A stretch of DNA of 64,000 nucleotides from Oscillospiraceae bacterium (GTDB taxonomy: Bacteria; Bacillota; Clostridia; Oscillospirales; UBA929), in contig WRLU01000007.1 of the NCBI GenBank assembly GCA_009777475.1, positions 6,532 to 70,531 on the forward strand, given 5' to 3'. The first letter of the stretch is position 1. Each line of letters begins with the position of its first letter. Positions 8,472 through 25,369 of the stretch are shown piece after piece. Below the pieces are notes generated by a model. It did no database searches, was not told the origin of the DNA, and saw only the letters and a program-made list of their open reading frames with translations. A program made the position numbers and the translations under genes.

Positions 8472-9770
8472 TTGAACAACGACACAGATGTTGTCTGCAA
8501 GCTGTGTGAGGAATTGTCTGTTGATATGGCGCAAAGCGTGGTAAACTCGTGGTTTACCGACCTAGAGGTAGAATCCTTTGCTAATGACAGGCTTGTCCTG
8601 CACTCGCCTGCTGATTTTAAGCGCGATGTTATCTCCTCAAAATATGTGCCTGCACTATCTCGTGCAGCCAAGCATATTTTTGGGAGGGATATTGACGTGT
8701 CCATAGCTCAGGTCGGCGGAGTTAAGTCGCGCCAGCCTGTCCGCCGGGGACCTGAACAACGAAGATATTCCTTTGACGAATTTGTTGTAGGGGAGAGCAA
8801 TAAATACGCCTATTCGGCAGCCAGCGCAGTTGCCAAATCGCCTGGCAAGGCTTATAATCCCCTGTTTTTATACGGCGGTTCAGGGTTGGGCAAAACTCAT
8901 CTGCTCCATGCCATAAAGGATTCGGTAAGACGCAATAACCCCGGGCTTGTGGTGTTAGCCGTTACCGCGGAAGCCTTTACCGGCGAATTGGCAACCGCTA
9001 TTCAAACCAAAACAACAAAGGACTTTAAAGAACGCTACCGGACCCCCGACCTTCTTTTAATAGACGACATACAATTTATCGCCCGCAGTGAATTTTCCCA
9101 AGAAGAAATTTTCCATACCTTCAACGCCATGTACGATGCACAGAATCAGATCGTTATAACCTCCGATCGGCCGCCCCGGGAGCTTCAGGCAATCGAAAAC
9201 CGATTGCGTACCCGTTTCGAGTGGGGACTGATTACCGACATAAGTCCGCCCGACTTTGAAACCCGTATTGCGATTATACAATCAAAATCACAACGGCTGG
9301 GGCTTATTCTGCCTCGTGAGGTTATAGAGCTTGCCGCAGAATCTATCACCACAAATGTAAGGCAGATAGAGGGGATGGTAAACAAGCTTAAAGCAGAGAG
9401 GGATTTGATGGGCAAATCCATTGATGTGGAAATGGCGGGAAAGGCGATTGCTGACCTCATGAGGGAAAACCCCGGATTCAATCCCACACCGATGTATATC
9501 TTGGAAGAAGTTTGCAAGTTTTACAACTTAGAGCCCTCCCAAATAACCGGAAAAAGCCGCAAAGGGGATATTGTCCGGGTGCGCCAGATTGCTATGTACC
9601 TAATCCGCACCATGACCTCCATGTCTCTTGAAAATATAGGTCATAGAATTTTTTTACGTGACCATACCACCGTTTTGCACGCAGTTAAAAAGGTAGAGGA
9701 GCATAAAGAGCATAACCCTGCCTTTAATAACGATATCAAGGCTATTATTGAGAATATTAAGGGGAATTAG
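8472..9770 (+). CDS. dnaA: Chromosomal replication initiator DnaA
   Basis: AAA+ Walker A GGSGLGKTHLLHAI, box VII, and a C-terminal DNA-binding domain (..RQIAMYLIR..T..SL..IG..F..RDHTTVLHA). TTG start has RBS GGGGGAG. Confidence 0.97.
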   Translation: MNNDTDVVCKLCEELSVDMAQSVVNSWFTDLEVESFANDRLVLHSPADFKRDVISSKYVPALSRAAKHIFGRDIDVSIAQVGGVKSRQPVRRGPEQRRYSFDEFVVGESNKYAYSAASAVAKSPGKAYNPLFLYGGSGLGKTHLLHAIKDSVRRNNPGLVVLAVTAEAFTGELATAIQTKTTKDFKERYRTPDLLLIDDIQFIARSEFSQEEIFHTFNAMYDAQNQIVITSDRPPRELQAIENRLRTRFEWGLITDISPPDFETRIAIIQSKSQRLGLILPREVIELAAESITTNVRQIEGMVNKLKAERDLMGKSIDVEMAGKAIADLMRENPGFNPTPMYILEEVCKFYNLEPSQITGKSRKGDIVRVRQIAMYLIRTMTSMSLENIGHRIFLRDHTTVLHAVKKVEEHKEHNPAFNNDIKAIIENIKGN

Positions 9771-20451: not shown

Positions 20452-20526
20452 TGGGCTGTCGCCAAGCGGTAAGGCACCAGACTTTGACTCTGGCATTCGT
20501 AGGTTCAAATCCTGCCAGCCCAGCCA
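20452..20526 (+). tRNA. tRNA-Gln (anticodon UUG)
   Basis: Acceptor TGGGCTG/CAGCCCA, anticodon loop CUUUGAC, T-loop GGTTCAAATCC and CCA. Confidence 0.95.
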
Positions 20527-20741: not shown

Positions 20742-20990
20742 CTAAGGTTTAGAGTTGCCGTTTTTTGTCTTGGTGCGTGGGTTCGGGTTTTCTTCACGGA
20801 TAAGTAGGTCAGACACCTCGCACCCCAACGCCTCACAGATTAGGTCTAGGTGGTCGAGCTTCACACGCTCCCCCAATTCGTTATACATATCTCCGATGGT
20901 GCTGGGGCGGATGCCTGTTGATCTGGATAGGTCTGCTTGTGTCCACCGAACTTCGCCAAGCCGGGCGGACAACAGGATTCTGATAGCCAT
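20742..20990 (-). CDS. XRE-family helix-turn-helix transcriptional regulator (82 aa)
   Basis: MAIRILLSARLGEVRWTQADLSRSTGIRPSTIGDMYN...LDLICEALGCEVSDLL is a classic Cro/C1-type HTH. ATG at 20990 has RBS GAAGGGAG. Confidence 0.85.
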   Translation of the reverse strand: MAIRILLSARLGEVRWTQADLSRSTGIRPSTIGDMYNELGERVKLDHLDLICEALGCEVSDLLIREENPNPRTKTKNGNSKP

Positions 20991-21100
20991 AATCTTGCTC
21001 CCTTCAAATAATTTAGCACGGATGATAAAATAAAGGGGCAATTTGTGAGATAATCTCATTTTCCATCATAGCCTATGTCAATTGCTATCGATTTTTCTAT

Positions 21101-21150
21101 GAAAACGACAAAACGCCCTGCATTCCGCACAAAAGGCAAAATACAGGGCG
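21101..21150 (-). terminator. Terminator between the 47-aa ORF and the XRE gene
   Basis: CGCCCTG / CAGGGCG stem. The minus strand then reads TTTTGTCGTTTTC. Confidence 0.5.
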
Positions 21151-21165
21151 ATATAGGAATTTTAT

Positions 21166-21309
21166 TCACTTTTCGCCGATGGCGGCAACCTCGGCTTTGC
21201 CGAATATGCCCTCAACCTCGTGTGCAAGGCTCACAATATGTTCGAGCTTGGCGATGATGTCATCCAAACCCTCCTCGCTGAATTCAAGAACGGATTTTAT
21301 TTTGCTCAT
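21166..21309 (-). CDS. Unlisted 47-aa acidic hypothetical protein
   Basis: MSKIKSVLEFSEEGLDDIIAKLEHIVSLAHEVEGIFGKAEVAAIGEK. ATG at 21309 lies 7 nt after GAGGGGGGTG. It is below the ORF-track size cutoff. Confidence 0.5.
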   Translation of the reverse strand: MSKIKSVLEFSEEGLDDIIAKLEHIVSLAHEVEGIFGKAEVAAIGEK

Positions 21310-21330: not shown

Positions 21331-21362
21331 GCACAAACCGCCCCAGCGGAGCGGTCTGGTTT
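21331..21362 (-). terminator. Second terminator-like hairpin just upstream of the 47-aa ORF RBS
   Basis: Minus strand ACCGC..GCGGT stem followed by TTGTGCTTTT. Confidence 0.4.
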
Positions 21363-21371
21363 ATTGATAAA

Positions 21372-21625
21372 CTAAATAAGCAAGAGAGCCTTTCGGCTCT
21401 CCTGTAAGGTTGGCATTTGGCAGGCGTAGCATTCTCCTGCGTCTCTCGGGTTGCCCCTGTCAATACCAGCGGCGTGTGGTCGCTACGAAATCCACCACCT
21501 CAAACACCCAACCTTATTGTTCGACAGGATAAAGGGTTGTCGGCAGGGCCGGCTGTTCCTGCATCACTTTTGGCCGCTGGGGCGCGTGGATGCCGTTGTC
21601 CACCCCAACAACCCATTACCATCAT
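21372..21625 (-). ncRNA. Candidate structured RNA 'A' (~250 nt), family unassigned
   Basis: Begins just downstream of a near-consensus promoter and ends at GAGAGCC-GAAA-GGCTCTC plus TTGCTTATTT. It contains several perfect 7-9-bp long-range complementarities and no credible ORF. Confidence 0.5.
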
Positions 21626-21631
21626 ACGCAC

Positions 21632-21660
21632 ATTATAACACGCTTATTCTTTTTTGTAAA
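21632..21660 (-). promoter_or_regulatory. Promoter A (TTTACA-N17-TGT-TATAAT)
   Basis: Minus strand TTTACAAAAAAGAATAAGCGTGTTATAAT. It is identical at 23 of 29 positions to promoter B. Confidence 0.65.
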
Positions 21661-21827
21661 TAACTTTGTGAGTTAAAATATACCGTTGCAACCGAGGCTC
21701 CTTCATTTCCCACATGGTTATGATTGAGTTTTTCTTTTCTGCTGTTTCTGTACTCAATCTCAAAACGATTTCTGCTACATTGCTGTATCGCTTTATGACA
21801 CCCAGGCGGGGACCTGGACGCTGAGGG

Positions 21828-22868
21828 TCAAAAAAGGCGGTGCGGCACCCATACTCTCCTACGAATGGTCGAAGGCCAGCGGCAAGGGACCCGATGGCAG
21901 CTGGCTGCATCGGCTCGACCCAGCAATTCTCGCTCAATCCGCTTTTTATTGCTGAGTTCAATGGCATCACGGATGGCTTCTTGCTGTGTGTCTATTTTGC
22001 GAAAGATGGCATCGAGTTTTTTATCATCATCATCTTCCTGTTGGTTTTTCCATACTTTAGAGAGAAGCTCATAGAGTTCTTGACCATCCGGGAAGTCGTT
22101 ATATCCCAACAGCATATCGTCCCAAAGGCGAGGGGTGCTTATGGCGGCAACATATTCTGCTTCAGTGCTGTTTTGGTTTAAGTGAGCAAATGCGTAGTGC
22201 ATCACTTGGCGGTCTAAATTCATGCGTACACTCGCAGAGATTGCTCCAACGTTATACAAAAGTTGGGCTGCCTCCAGCATTTCTTGGGGCGAGGAAAACT
22301 TCAACCCACCTAAAATTTCTTTCTGTTGCGCTTCAGGGGAGAGTCCGGCTAAACCGTATTTCTCAGCATAGAACAATGCAGCGATGGGACTCATATAAGT
22401 GTTATCCCGTAGCCCTTGAATCTCTGTCGGCGTGAGAAAAGCATATGATTGGGGATTCGCCTCGTATTCTTCAACGGTCGCTGACTTATGAAAACCAGGG
22501 ATTCCTGCCTCGGCCAATTCGTTACGAAACTCTGATGTTATTTCCGCATATTTTAGCCTTGTAGATGCTGCCTCTGCTGAAAAACCAAGGTCGGGTATAT
22601 TGTTTTTTGTTTCAAAGTCATCCCCATGAAGCGTGGCGTATTTGGTATAAATTTCAGCATATTTATCCAGCCACATCAGCGTTTCAGCATCCAACTCGGA
22701 TCGCACCTCAGCGATGCGGTCAGCAGCAGACGGAACGGCGGTTGCGATAGTTTGCGATTTCTGCAGTTGTGCCAAGATTTTTGTGAAGCCATCACCGGCA
22801 ATGCCTGATGTTTTTGACGACTGTAAATTGTTCACAGAAGGCGTAGTAGTCAAGCCTGATATGTTCAA
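21828..22868 (-). CDS. Hypothetical protein (347 aa from TTG 22868, or 362 aa from ATG 22916)
   Basis: Long ORF with protein-like composition. TTG at 22868 (MNISGLTTTPS...) lies 6 nt after GAGGAGGA, whereas ATG 22916 has no RBS. I recognise no family. Confidence 0.6.
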   Translation of the reverse strand: MNISGLTTTPSVNNLQSSKTSGIAGDGFTKILAQLQKSQTIATAVPSAADRIAEVRSELDAETLMWLDKYAEIYTKYATLHGDDFETKNNIPDLGFSAEAASTRLKYAEITSEFRNELAEAGIPGFHKSATVEEYEANPQSYAFLTPTEIQGLRDNTYMSPIAALFYAEKYGLAGLSPEAQQKEILGGLKFSSPQEMLEAAQLLYNVGAISASVRMNLDRQVMHYAFAHLNQNSTEAEYVAAISTPRLWDDMLLGYNDFPDGQELYELLSKVWKNQQEDDDDKKLDAIFRKIDTQQEAIRDAIELSNKKRIERELLGRADAASCHRVPCRWPSTIRRRVWVPHRLF

Positions 22869-22957: not shown

Positions 22958-23124
22958 TTAGGGAAAAAGGGCTGCGGTTATATTTGGAATACCGCAGCCC
23001 TTTTGTTTGGTTTTAGCCGATGAAGAGGTTTTGGCACTTTGGCGAGTGTACCCCTTCCCGCATTTCTTTTGACCCGAAGGGTGCGTAGCAGCACAATCTC
23101 TACTTCAAAGCACCAACCCATTGT
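22958..23124 (-). promoter_or_regulatory. Leader RNA 'B' with an intrinsic terminator (attenuator or riboswitch-like)
   Basis: Runs from promoter B to the AAAAGGGCTGCGGT / ACCGCAGCCCTTTT stem (22965-23004) plus a U-tract, about 50-100 nt ahead of the orphan ORF. Confidence 0.5.
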
Positions 23125-23130
23125 ACGTTG

Positions 23131-23159
23131 ATTATAACATACTTATTCCCATATGTAAA
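23131..23159 (-). promoter_or_regulatory. Promoter B (TTTACA-N17-TGT-TATAAT)
   Basis: Minus strand TTTACATATGGGAATAAGTATGTTATAAT. Confidence 0.65.
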
Positions 23160-23400
23160 GGGCTTTATTTTTGCCCTCCAGCCTTTTTAAGTTCCGCCCT
23201 CGGATTCGATAGAATGTCATAACGGAATTTTTCAAGCCCTTTTGGTTTGCCCCTTGCAGTATCAGGGCTTGTCCATTTTTCACGGAACCAGTTTTTTGCA
23301 AATTGAACGTCCAAAAATGGGCAAAATTTCTACTATTCCGGCAAGAAAAAGCGGCACAAGGCAAAGAGCTTACGGAGAACATCGACAAATCCGTGGGAGC

Positions 23401-23452: not shown

Positions 23453-25264
23453 TCACTCCACCGTAACGCTTTTTGCTAAGTTTCGGGGCTTGTCTATATC
23501 CAGACCCTTATTTGCGGCTACATAATAAGCGAAAAGCTGTAAAACTATCGCAGAGAGAGACGGCGAAAACAATTCCGTACTCGGGGGCAGGGCTATGACC
23601 GAGAGCTTATCATCCTGTACTGCCTGAGGTACATTACCTATAAGTAACACCTTAGCTCCCCGACTTATTACCTGCTCTATGTTGCTCATGATTTTGCCGT
23701 GCAGGCGCGGACAGTTGGCAATTGCTACAACCAAGGTATCCTCCTCAATAAGAGAAATAGTGCCGTGTTTTAGCTCCCCGCCGGCATATGCCTCGGAGTG
23801 GATATAGGAGATCTCTTTGAGCTTCAGCGAACCCTCCAATGCGATTGCGTAATCTATATTTCTGCCGATAAAGAAAATACTCTTGCAGCCGACACACTCT
23901 GATGCGTGTTTCTGCACAAGGTCTATCTGTCCTAATATGTGCTCAGTTTTTTCGGGCAGAGCCTCTAATTCCGCCAAGAACCCTTTCGCTCCGGCGGGTG
24001 ATAATTCTCCTGCTTGGAGGGCAAAATGTATAGCTAAGCCGTACAATACCGCAAGCTGTGCCGAAAAAGCCTTTGTGGTGGCAACGGCTATCTCAGGTCC
24101 GGCTGCCGTGTATACGCAAAAGTCCGACTCTTTTGCTATAGTACTGCCGGTTACATTGACAATTGACAGGCAAACGGCACCCTTTGACCTCGCCTCACGC
24201 ATGGCGGCTATGGTATCGGCAGTCTCCCCCGACTGGCTGATGAGTATAACCAAGGTTTTTTCATCAATAATAGCATCTTTATACCTAAACTCGCTGGCAA
24301 GCTCAACATCAACAGGTATTCTGCACAGTTTTTCAATAACATATTTGCCCACAACCCCGGCGTTATATGCCGACCCGCAGGCAACTGCCGCGATTTTGTT
24401 AAACTTAGTAATATCTATTTTGTCAATAACCTCCCTGTTATTCCCTGGGTTTACAACGGAGCTAACTGTTTCCCGCAAGACCTTAGGCTGTTCTACAATT
24501 TCTTTTAGCATAAAATGTTCCCATCCGCCCTTTTCGGCACTGTCGGCACTCCATGATATGGTTTCCGCAGTCTTTTGGAGTGGTTCTCTGTTTATGTTGT
24601 AAAATTCTACACCATTGCGCTGCAAAACCGTTATCTCTTTGTCGTTGAGATAGTAGACCTTGTTGGTATGTTGCAGTACGGCGGGAACGTCTGAGGCTAT
24701 AAAATTCCCGTGATCCGAAACACCAATAATCAGCGGATTATCCTTTTTAATAGCGATAAGGGTATCGGGATGGTCAAGGCTCATAACCCCAAGGGCATAG
24801 GATCCCTCCAATGCGTTTGATACATGAATGACTGTTTCAAGTAAATCCCCATTGTAGTAATATTCGGCGAGCTGTGCGATTACCTCGCTGTCGGTCTGAG
24901 AGGCAAAGACCGCCCCTTTGTGCTCCAGCAGCTCCTTCAGTTGCTTGTAGTTTTCAATAATTCCGTTATGTACAATGGCAATTTTGCTCCGGCTTCCCAC
25001 ATGGGGATGAGAGTTTGTATCGGAGGGTTCGCCATGGGTTGCCCATCTGGTATGCCCGATGCCTATATTTCCCTTGATTGTACAATCACGCAGGCGTTCC
25101 TCCAACACATTCAAGCGGCCCTTTTGCTTTACTATATCAAAGCCATTGCCACCCCAAACGGCTATTCCCGCCGAATCATATCCTCTGTATTCAAGTTTTT
25201 TCAGCCCCTGTACAATAATCGGAACAGCGTCCCTCAGACCTACATAACCAATAATTCCGCACAT
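23453..25264 (-). CDS. glmS: Glutamine-fructose-6-phosphate aminotransferase
   Basis: MCGIIGYVG N-terminal nucleophile, two SIS domains and a C-terminal ...KPRNLAKSVTVE. ATG at 25264 has RBS AAAGGAGGA. Confidence 0.97.
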   Translation of the reverse strand: MCGIIGYVGLRDAVPIIVQGLKKLEYRGYDSAGIAVWGGNGFDIVKQKGRLNVLEERLRDCTIKGNIGIGHTRWATHGEPSDTNSHPHVGSRSKIAIVHNGIIENYKQLKELLEHKGAVFASQTDSEVIAQLAEYYYNGDLLETVIHVSNALEGSYALGVMSLDHPDTLIAIKKDNPLIIGVSDHGNFIASDVPAVLQHTNKVYYLNDKEITVLQRNGVEFYNINREPLQKTAETISWSADSAEKGGWEHFMLKEIVEQPKVLRETVSSVVNPGNNREVIDKIDITKFNKIAAVACGSAYNAGVVGKYVIEKLCRIPVDVELASEFRYKDAIIDEKTLVILISQSGETADTIAAMREARSKGAVCLSIVNVTGSTIAKESDFCVYTAAGPEIAVATTKAFSAQLAVLYGLAIHFALQAGELSPAGAKGFLAELEALPEKTEHILGQIDLVQKHASECVGCKSIFFIGRNIDYAIALEGSLKLKEISYIHSEAYAGGELKHGTISLIEEDTLVVAIANCPRLHGKIMSNIEQVISRGAKVLLIGNVPQAVQDDKLSVIALPPSTELFSPSLSAIVLQLFAYYVAANKGLDIDKPRNLAKSVTVE

Positions 25265-25369
25265 AGATAATCCTCCTTTTACAGTTGCGTTTAATTTGGC
25301 ATTCACCAGATGACGGTCGCGGAAAAATGCATGCTTTGCCACAAGTTAAAGCACTAGCGATAAACCACT

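Follow-up and report, generated by a model that had tools for sequence, protein, structure and literature searches.

Tandem skipping-rope RNA units in an Oscillospiraceae genome and their likely descent from a phage PBECR cassette

What kind of RNA is encoded at positions 21372-21625 of a 64,000-nucleotide stretch of DNA from an Oscillospiraceae bacterium (GenBank assembly GCA_009777475.1, contig WRLU01000007.1, positions 6,532 to 70,531 of the forward strand; this whole stretch is hereafter called the window), and with which partner might it act? A preliminary description, made from the letters alone, had read the minus strand of this segment as an RNA of two helix-closed domains linked by a perfect 7-bp inter-domain pairing, and had considered a pseudoknot, a kissing contact or alternative structures, with possible read-through into the genes downstream. 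Our analysis makes it virtually certain that the segment consists instead of two tandem, non-identical units of the skipping-rope RNA family, with a third unit nearby.

The skipping-rope motif was published, with 3' terminators, by Weinberg et al. 2017 (PMC5737381). In the part of that paper available to us, the motif is described as rarely located in 5' untranslated regions (UTRs) and as compellingly associated with one nearby protein, whose domain that part of the text does not name; self-cleavage, the subject of the sole published tests given there, was ruled out. The RNA flagged in the window is an ordinary fresh instance of this catalogued family, one of the orphan RNAs with features pointing to a "sophisticated function", whose role has been open since 2017.

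Identity and expression signals of the RNA genes

The window was scanned against Rfam 15, in which RF02924 (skipping-rope) has a gathering score of 36.7 bits. Three full-length matches were obtained, with units 1 and 2 covering model positions 1-80 of 80. They are given below together with their scores under R1, a covariance model that we built from a 40-sequence alignment of the family. T1, T2, T5 and T8 are subtype labels coined in the present analysis, and L-numbers (e.g. L152) are its locus labels.

21535-21613, minus strand: unit 1 (subtype T8); RF02924 47.1 bits, E 4.8e-08; R1 68.2 bits
21405-21516 (Rfam core 21412-21508), minus strand: unit 2 (subtype T5); RF02924 39.2 bits, E 1.1e-05; R1 52.4 bits
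23034-23113, minus strand: third unit (subtype T1), a separate single-unit gene; RF02924 50.4 bits, E 5.2e-09; R1 80.7 bits

Because each helix-closed domain matches RF02924 over its full length, the domains are two complete units of a known RNA. The preliminary description was right to see a structured non-coding RNA with two closed domains, but these are not the halves of one fold: they are two separate members of the family. Viral contigs hold arrays of one, two or three units of mixed subtype. Specifically, R1 revealed two-unit arrays at L005, L022, L059, L066, L069, L084, L089, L095, L097, L110 and L120 and three-unit arrays at L102, L112 and L118, with spacers of 12-41 nt (27 nt in the window). 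The units of one array differ in subtype, and several were confirmed independently by Rfam. A T5-specific pattern returned 120 loci on metagenome contigs, nearly all with a solitary unit, and an exact 23-mer of unit 1 had no match in metagenome contigs. The third window unit lies 1.4 kb upstream of the two-unit gene, between glmS and an open reading frame (ORF) of 362 aa.

Neither the Rfam tRNA model nor ARAGORN recognized the window units as tRNAs, while both reported tRNAs elsewhere in the window. Some units in other genomes occur beside tRNA genes. The cultured, virulent Lactococcus phage 949 encodes an unannotated skipping-rope RNA of 57.8 bits (NC_015263.1, 45118-45196; L365, 3471-3549) inside a tRNA cluster, between tRNA-Asp and tRNA-Pro, and the units in L082, L087 and L101 begin within ~20 nt of a tRNA 3' end.

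The expression signals of the two window genes are as follows.

21625-21375, minus strand: two-unit RNA gene; predicted ~250-nt primary transcript
21632-21660, minus strand: promoter of the two-unit gene; TTTACA, 17 nt, TATAAT, TG extension; 11/12 match
21381-21404, minus strand: first intrinsic terminator; 10-bp stem, GAAA loop, then CUUAUUU
21334-21358, minus strand: second intrinsic terminator; 11-bp stem, then UGCUUUU
23131-23159, minus strand: promoter of the third unit; TTTACA, 17 nt, TATAAT with TG; equally good match
22964-23000, minus strand: terminator of the third unit; GGGCUGCGGU..ACCGCAGCCC, then UUUUU; read directly from the sequence

The last of these was found by eye, since its loop exceeds the size covered by the terminator scan. 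The 3' terminators expected of RF02924 are present at both genes, two of them 3' of unit 2 and one 3' of the third unit. Judged by its signals, the two-unit segment is a small-RNA gene predicted to be transcribed independently, and, as its promoter and terminators bracket the segment, the coordinates originally proposed closely fit the predicted primary transcript. Two further properties noted at the outset were recovered, namely the tandem terminators 3' of the RNA, with hairpins at 21404-21381 and 21358-21334, and the raised G+C content, which is 0.555 in the segment compared with 0.474 in the whole window and 0.35 in the 75 nt just upstream.

The next genes on this strand are a 47-aa ORF, with a strong ribosome-binding site and its own terminator (21150-21114), and a gene for a 105-aa XRE-type helix-turn-helix protein (20742-21309 for the pair, minus strand). 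The suggestion that the RNA is their read-through leader was not sustained: the RNA has its own promoter, two terminators intervene, and no homologue of either the 47-aa ORF or the XRE protein was found at ~240 other skipping-rope loci. For the last reason, we also rejected the two genes as regulated targets. A cis-regulatory leader or riboswitch would occupy the 5' UTR of a conserved downstream gene, an arrangement that is absent from the window locus.

Family fold and long-range contacts

A degenerate pattern of the family core yielded 120 viral contigs, and 40 distinct units, the three window units included, were aligned. Under the family structure, 94.9% of cells in this alignment are paired, compared with 31-45% in slid controls. 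Changes on both sides were observed in 13 of the 23 pairs, among them all 8 P1 pairs, and none of 500 shuffles reached the observed covariation score. The comparative alignment that the preliminary description had proposed as a check on compensatory changes thus revealed covariation of its closing helices. These helices and the internal hairpins named with them correspond to P1, P2 and P4 of the RF02924 matches, far beyond chance.

Each unit is a four-way junction in which a closing stem (P1) encloses three hairpins (P2, P3 and P4); pairing of the P2 loop with the P4 loop forms a pseudoknot that locks the junction. Unit 1 is closed by GGGTTGT/ACAACCC (P1, GGUUGUUG/CGACAACC) and contains P2 GUGGA/UCCAC, P3 GCC-CCAGC-GGC and P4 GCAGG/CCUGC. 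Unit 2 is closed by TAAGGTTGG/CCAACCTTA, part of an extended P1 (UAAGGUUGG..CCAACCUUA), and contains P2 GUGGU/ACCAC, P3a GCC-GCU-GGU and P4 GCAGG/CCUGC. An extra GNRA hairpin, GGG-GCAA-CCC, takes the place of the AAAA linker after P3 in unit 2, as in all T5-type relatives. This tetraloop hairpin is real and covaries, since the relatives carry AGG-GAAA-CCU or GGG-GAAA-CCC at the same place. The minimum free energy fold returned P1, P3 and P4 of unit 1 and all four helices of unit 2. We rejected the extended GGGG..CCCC form of the domain-1 hairpin, which lies outside the family structure because it competes with P3. The family consensus junction nucleotides are uGAGG, ACGC and AAAAGAGAUGC; unit 1 has UGGGG, ACGC and AAAAGUGAUGC and unit 2 has UGAGG, ACACGC and CCCGAGAGACGC, with deviations at single positions.

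The conserved long-range contact sits inside each unit, from the P2 loop to the P4 loop. This helix has at least 6 bp in 106 of 120 parsed RNAs, and its mean length is 5.98 bp, compared with 4.46 bp for shuffled P4 loops and 4.41 bp when the loops came from other RNAs. Compensating versions number more than 20, for example CGUUGC/GCGACG, CGUAGC/GCUACG, CGUGGC/GCCACG, CGCACG/CGUGCG, CGUACC/GGUACG and UGUGCU/GGCACA. The pseudoknot of unit 2 is CGUAGCG/UGCUACG (7 bp), and that of unit 1, read from the sequence, is CGGC/GCCG, with only 4 bp. Family-wide, a constant CGU/ACG half is combined with a highly variable 3-nt half and its matched partner (UGC, AGC, GGC, ACC, GUC, CCC, CCG and others), which varies even within one subtype. 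This variable half could be a specificity determinant. In addition, many units have P1 prolonged by a conserved outer helix, GGCUUUACC..(unit)..GGUUUAGC, which includes a U-U/U-U internal loop and is absent from the Rfam model (examples are L030:8300-8440, L014, L193, L245, L261 and L106).

All three complementarities on which the two-domain model had been built, the two closing stems and the link between the domains, are exact where they had been placed. The inter-domain match, CCAGCGG/CCGCTGG, is in fact 8 nt long (CCAGCGGC/GCCGCUGG) and links the loop and 3' strand of the unit-1 P3 hairpin with the 5' strand and loop of P3a in unit 2. Each of these segments is already taken up locally by its P3 hairpin. 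When the two units were shuffled by mononucleotide, matches of at least 7 nt arose with a probability of 0.33 and matches of at least 8 nt with a probability of 0.09; random pairs of family members gave at least 7 nt with a probability of 0.155. None of 15 other adjacent unit pairs (10 without near-identical loci) has a P3-to-P3 match of at least 7 nt, their longest matches being 6-7 nt and mostly outside P3. The only unit-1 homologue found (L152, Clostridiales UBA929) has CUUAACGG at this place, forming GCC-UUAA-CGGC, and no second unit follows it. Among T5 units, the P3a loop varies, GAU being commonest, followed by GCU, GUU, GAC, GCC and GAA.

The pairing between the domains is therefore at chance level and is absent from the other arrays, from L152 and from ~120 unit-2 homologues. 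Homologues that fail to keep the complementarities had been named in advance as evidence against the two-domain model, and for the third complementarity such homologues are what we found. A single bipartite RNA, tied by this pairing or switching between folds and possibly controlling read-through, would account for an exact 8-nt complementarity between two units co-transcribed from one promoter. It is nevertheless highly improbable, given a match of chance frequency between segments engaged in local hairpins, its loss in homologues that are mostly solitary, and downstream genes that lie behind two terminators and are not conserved with the RNA.

The PBECR cassette in phages and its remnants in the window

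When the ORFs within 3.5 kb of the RNAs were clustered for 101 loci (37 groups after dereplication), one neighbour dominated, a protein of ~490-590 aa that is encoded on the same strand and ends a median of 30 nt upstream of the RNA. According to Pfam, its N-terminal part is Phage_Mu_F or Phage_min_cap2, and its C-terminal ~125 aa are PBECR2/PBECR3 (PBECR2 E 4e-13 and 6e-11). PBECR stands for the phage Barnase-EndoU-ColicinE5/D-RelE-like nuclease domain. The gene order in phages is terminase large subunit, SPP1-type portal, MuF::PBECR, RNA, scaffold. Using a hidden Markov model (HMM) of the C-terminal domain, we detected PBECR upstream on the same strand in 25 of 36 viral locus groups, in 19 of them within 26-48 nt, and at 9 of 18 true genome loci (6 intact and 3 fragmented). 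The same position was occupied by PBECR at 74 of the 108 informative metagenome T5 loci, 61 of them with an intact copy within 60 nt, and 34 loci had none. Two elements that the published description leads one to expect, the HIxxRHP helix and the KNS(V/I)x(T/S) strand, are present in the phage domains. DUF3800, a partner hinted at in the 2017 paper, was set aside, as no neighbour scanned had a DUF3800 match. Our literature search found no paper joining "skipping-rope" and "PBECR", and a search for cultured phages with these PBECR classes gave one uncultured faecal phage record only.

PBECR domains were predicted to be RNases that are packaged in the virion and injected with the DNA, and some MuF-C/PBECR domains were suggested to be inactive RNA binders (Iyer et al., PMC5512222). 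A 2026 preprint places PBECR within the colicin-like BECR group. MuF polymorphic toxins are expected to have an immunity gene in the slot directly downstream (PMC5576092).

In 21 of 36 viral groups, the first unit is preceded, at a distance of 10-32 nt, by a promoter of sigma-70 type (TTTAC[AT]-N17-TATAAT-like), a motif present in 70 of 20000 random 90-nt windows (0.35%). Its -35 element is formed by the conserved last codons of the PBECR gene (..LYKKE*) and its -10 element lies just past the stop codon. With its promoter in the last PBECR codons, the RNA should, as far as such signals can be read, be expressed separately from the late head operon. Both promoters in the window are of exactly this PBECR-embedded kind.

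RNA subtype and nuclease class are associated in the phages. The subtype of the first unit follows the PBECR class (P2-class and P3-class here denote PBECR domain classes, distinct from the helices P2 and P3): P2-class domains occur with T2 in 6 of 6 groups and P3-class domains with T1 in 7 of 7, across both MuF and minor capsid 2 carriers. L089 encodes a P2-class domain and L079 a P3-class domain, and Butyricicoccus pullicaecorum ET57 (L203) has a PBECR2/3 domain in a prophage. PBECR identity and RNA-core identity have a Spearman correlation of 0.48 (1176 pairs from 49 dereplicated cassettes), and the RNA is 91% identical to that of the nearest PBECR, compared with 74% overall. Later units of an array belong to subtypes whose cognate PBECR classes occur in other phages. 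In L021, a small ORF separates an intact PBECR gene from the PBECR stub and RNA that come after it.

Longer gaps of 180-590 nt between PBECR and RNA were observed in L021:541-1082, L120:5866-6360, L109:3876-4192, L118:3605-3869 and L023:7267-7449. Small ORFs of 49-80 aa, provided with ribosome-binding sites, occur there singly or in pairs, and one has a sub-threshold DUF7244 match. We found no significant Pfam family on the small ORFs of these five gaps and no divergent skipping-rope units or other Rfam families in them. The small ORFs are candidate protein immunity genes for other PBECR classes.

The window contains two remnants of this nuclease gene, one directly upstream of unit 1 and one upstream of the third unit.

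21647-21841, minus strand: PBECR2-like remnant, last ~65 aa; tblastn with viral PBECR C-termini, E 1.5e-09
23146-23265, minus strand: PBECR remnant, last ~35-40 aa, ..LKNSVMTFYRIRGRNLKRLEGKNKALYIWE*; tblastn 60-70% identity, E 2.8e-09

The first remnant lies inside a mechanical ORF (21644-21970), covers only HMM positions 81-128 of 128 and is without the N-terminal HIxxRHP catalytic helix. Its final codons (..IYKKE*) are overlapped by the -35 hexamer of the 21632-21660 promoter. The second resembles P3-class domains, which in phages stand before T1 RNAs, and has a stop codon further up the frame. No intact PBECR was found anywhere in the 64-kb window. Where other loci have a PBECR2/3 domain as neighbour, 3' stubs of it are all that is left in the window. 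Orphan units like these are also known from other loci, some with a fragmented PBECR, some with the LYKKE tail only and some with nothing upstream. Taken together, the window cassettes very probably derive from the phage PBECR cassette.

The surroundings are chromosomal and include glmS (23453-25342), an ECF sigma/anti-sigma pair, tRNA-His and tRNA-Gln. The rare 362-aa protein between the RNA genes is annotated as FWH04_03215 of an Oscillospiraceae metagenome-assembled genome and has only 10 homologues. We rejected it as a partner of the RNA: it had no match in Pfam, PADLOC, NCBIfam or PHROGs, and four homologous loci are without a skipping-rope RNA. Its homologues align only to residue ~340, and in L002, which is syntenic, nothing intervenes between this gene and the anti-sigma gene. 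In view of these loci without the RNA and of the synteny with L002, the RNA cassette looks like an insertion. When direct repeats were sought as insertion scars around the cassettes, the only one found was formed by the promoter regions of the two RNA genes, a 49-nt repeat that is 71% identical (other copy 23118-23166). The last ~21 codons of the 362-aa ORF (21828-21925, minus strand) are not common to its homologues and run through a G+C-rich palindromic stretch, GGTCGAGCCGATGCAGCCAGCTGCCATCGG..GCTGGCCTTCGACC, which adjoins the PBECR stub and is not repeated elsewhere in the window; this is probably an insertion or recombination junction.

Two other calls in the window concern neither RNA gene. 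ARAGORN reported a tRNA-Thr(CGU) at 8519-8588 (plus strand) inside a 432-aa ORF (8472-9770), which the Rfam tRNA model did not report and which is probably a false positive. A Plastid-ycf2 match at 20452-20524 (minus strand), antisense to tRNA-Gln, scored 30.1 bits against an Rfam cut-off of 65.7 bits and is spurious.

Possible function and known counterparts

The explanation that best covers the whole is that of phage-derived skipping-rope cassettes whose RNA acts as cognate partner and inhibitor of the PBECR RNase, and we give it about an even chance. An inhibitory or immunity role toward this RNase, considered by itself and drawn by analogy, is a tentative proposal that we hold at slightly less than even. 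We are more hesitant about the general form, that skipping-rope RNAs are immunity factors for capsid-borne PBECR2/3 RNases, each subtype directed against its cognate class, with extra units collected against competitors; this is possible but doubtful. The RNA would most likely act as an inhibitor, whether as an immunity factor or antitoxin like those of type III systems or as a decoy that serves as pseudo-substrate, and the cell producing the virions would be spared the activity of the RNase they carry. Extra and orphan units might neutralize PBECR effectors injected by other phages, in which case the three window units (T1, T8 and T5) could protect the bacterium against three classes of injected effectors. 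What favours inhibition is that the RNA directly follows a MuF-borne toxin domain, at the place expected of an immunity gene, that it has an independent constitutive-type promoter, and that its subtype follows the toxin class across different carriers. Inhibition is further favoured by arrays that gather heterologous subtypes and by intact RNA genes that persist behind dead toxin stubs, like orphan toxin/immunity cassettes.

Several points weigh against this proposal. The only experiments on the family established the absence of self-cleavage (PMC5737381). The co-variation of RNA and PBECR could be simple linkage of DNA 30 nt apart. Five viral groups have one or two small ORFs between PBECR and the RNAs, and no PBECR of the tested classes was detected with the units in or directly after tRNA genes (Lactococcus phage 949, L082, L087 and L101). 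Moreover, a late virion protein in a cell near lysis may need no immunity. In the window itself, neither of the tandem units is assured of function: the pseudoknot of unit 1 is weak, with 4 bp, and unit 2 departs from the conserved J3/4 sequence.

The adjacency to PBECR and the correlation between subtype and class would fit equally well if the RNA were a positive partner of PBECR, such as a guide, an activator, a scaffold or a bound RNA that is packaged and injected, with the chromosomal copies as leftovers of degraded prophages. The location of the RNA among head-morphogenesis genes and the suggestion of Iyer et al. that some MuF-C/PBECR domains are inactive RNA binders are in line with such a cofactor or cargo. 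We consider this unlikely, as arrays hold subtypes whose cognate PBECR class is absent from the phage concerned, the promoter is of an independent, constitutive type and not that of the late operon, and orphan RNA genes with full promoters and without PBECR are frequent in genomes and metagenomes; in the window, three intact units are found with no PBECR in 64 kb. Alternatively, the PBECR linkage might be positional only and the RNA a tRNA-sized four-way-junction decoy or mimic acting on host factors, for example anticodon nucleases or tRNA-modifying or -processing enzymes. The RNA has ~80 nt, a closing stem and three hairpins, it forms arrays like those of tRNAs, and units lie directly after tRNA genes (L082, L087 and L101) or, in phage 949, between tRNA-Asp and tRNA-Pro with no PBECR of the tested classes found. 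Yet P3 loops have only 3-4 nt, neither the Rfam tRNA model nor ARAGORN recognizes the RNA, and a model with no PBECR connection would hardly account for a promoter within PBECR codons, a spacing that stays at ~30 nt and a subtype that follows PBECR class, which makes a tRNA-related role quite unlikely.

Finally, the window units themselves might be non-functional, left behind when phage cassettes decayed. The PBECR gene next to each RNA gene is truncated, the 362-aa gene seems overwritten at its 3' end, where the junction lies, the pseudoknot of unit 1 is short, and the score of unit 2 exceeds the Rfam threshold by just 2.5 bits. However, all three units keep every helix, 11/12 promoters and terminators, and similar orphan units recur in many genomes; mere relics are therefore improbable.

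With the inhibitory reading preferred, the comparative picture, that is, the constant ~30-nt position, the promoter in the last codons, the tracking of class by subtype, the mixed arrays and the frequent orphans behind stubs, makes the open role of the family a simple question of rescue and binding. Should inhibition be its role, no polymorphic-toxin-like system before it would have had an RNA as immunity partner, and the PBECR2/3 domains would acquire a function. Polymorphic-toxin immunity genes would then have a counterpart made of RNA, and type-III-like toxin-antitoxin biology would gain a new branch.

Compared with known systems, the window RNA is a member of RF02924, with every testable defining feature of the family: P1-P4, the conserved junction nucleotides, the P2/P4-loop pseudoknot and the 3' terminators. 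It differs from the family description in having two units of different subtype in one transcript, in the extended P3 region of unit 2, where a GNRA hairpin replaces the AAAA linker, and in the reduction of the associated protein gene to a stub. With tRNA genes, skipping-rope units share a length of ~80 nt, a closing stem with three hairpins, an arrangement in arrays and, for some units, a place next to tRNA genes; unlike tRNAs, they have no anticodon-type 7-nt loop, T-loop or CCA, and they contain an internal pseudoknot between the first and third hairpin loops.

In type III toxin-antitoxin systems (ToxI/ToxN), ~36-nt near-identical tandem RNA repeats lie upstream of an endoribonuclease gene; the toxin processes them and is neutralized by the RNA. 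The common features are tandem pseudoknotted RNA units beside an endoribonuclease gene, expression signals of their own and direct neutralization of a protein by an RNA, which for skipping-rope is proposed by analogy. The skipping-rope RNA differs in lying downstream of the nuclease and in its heterogeneous units of 80-100 nt, and the PBECR nuclease, which is of BECR fold, forms a fusion with a virion protein. An intact adjacent toxin gene, characteristic of type III systems, is absent from the window and present in many phage loci, with the RNA downstream. The skipping-rope cassette works like a type III system but is not a member of that group. The orphan toxin-CT/immunity cassettes (toxin-CT, C-terminal toxin) of contact-dependent inhibition (CDI), Rhs and MuF systems (PMC3482391, PMC5576092) have a small protein as the partner where the skipping-rope cassette has an RNA, to which immunity would be ascribed by analogy. 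The two kinds of cassette share a truncated 3' piece of a toxin gene followed by an intact partner gene, arrays of partner genes of differing specificity, and the exchange of C-terminal toxin and partner, as a module, between N-terminal carriers.

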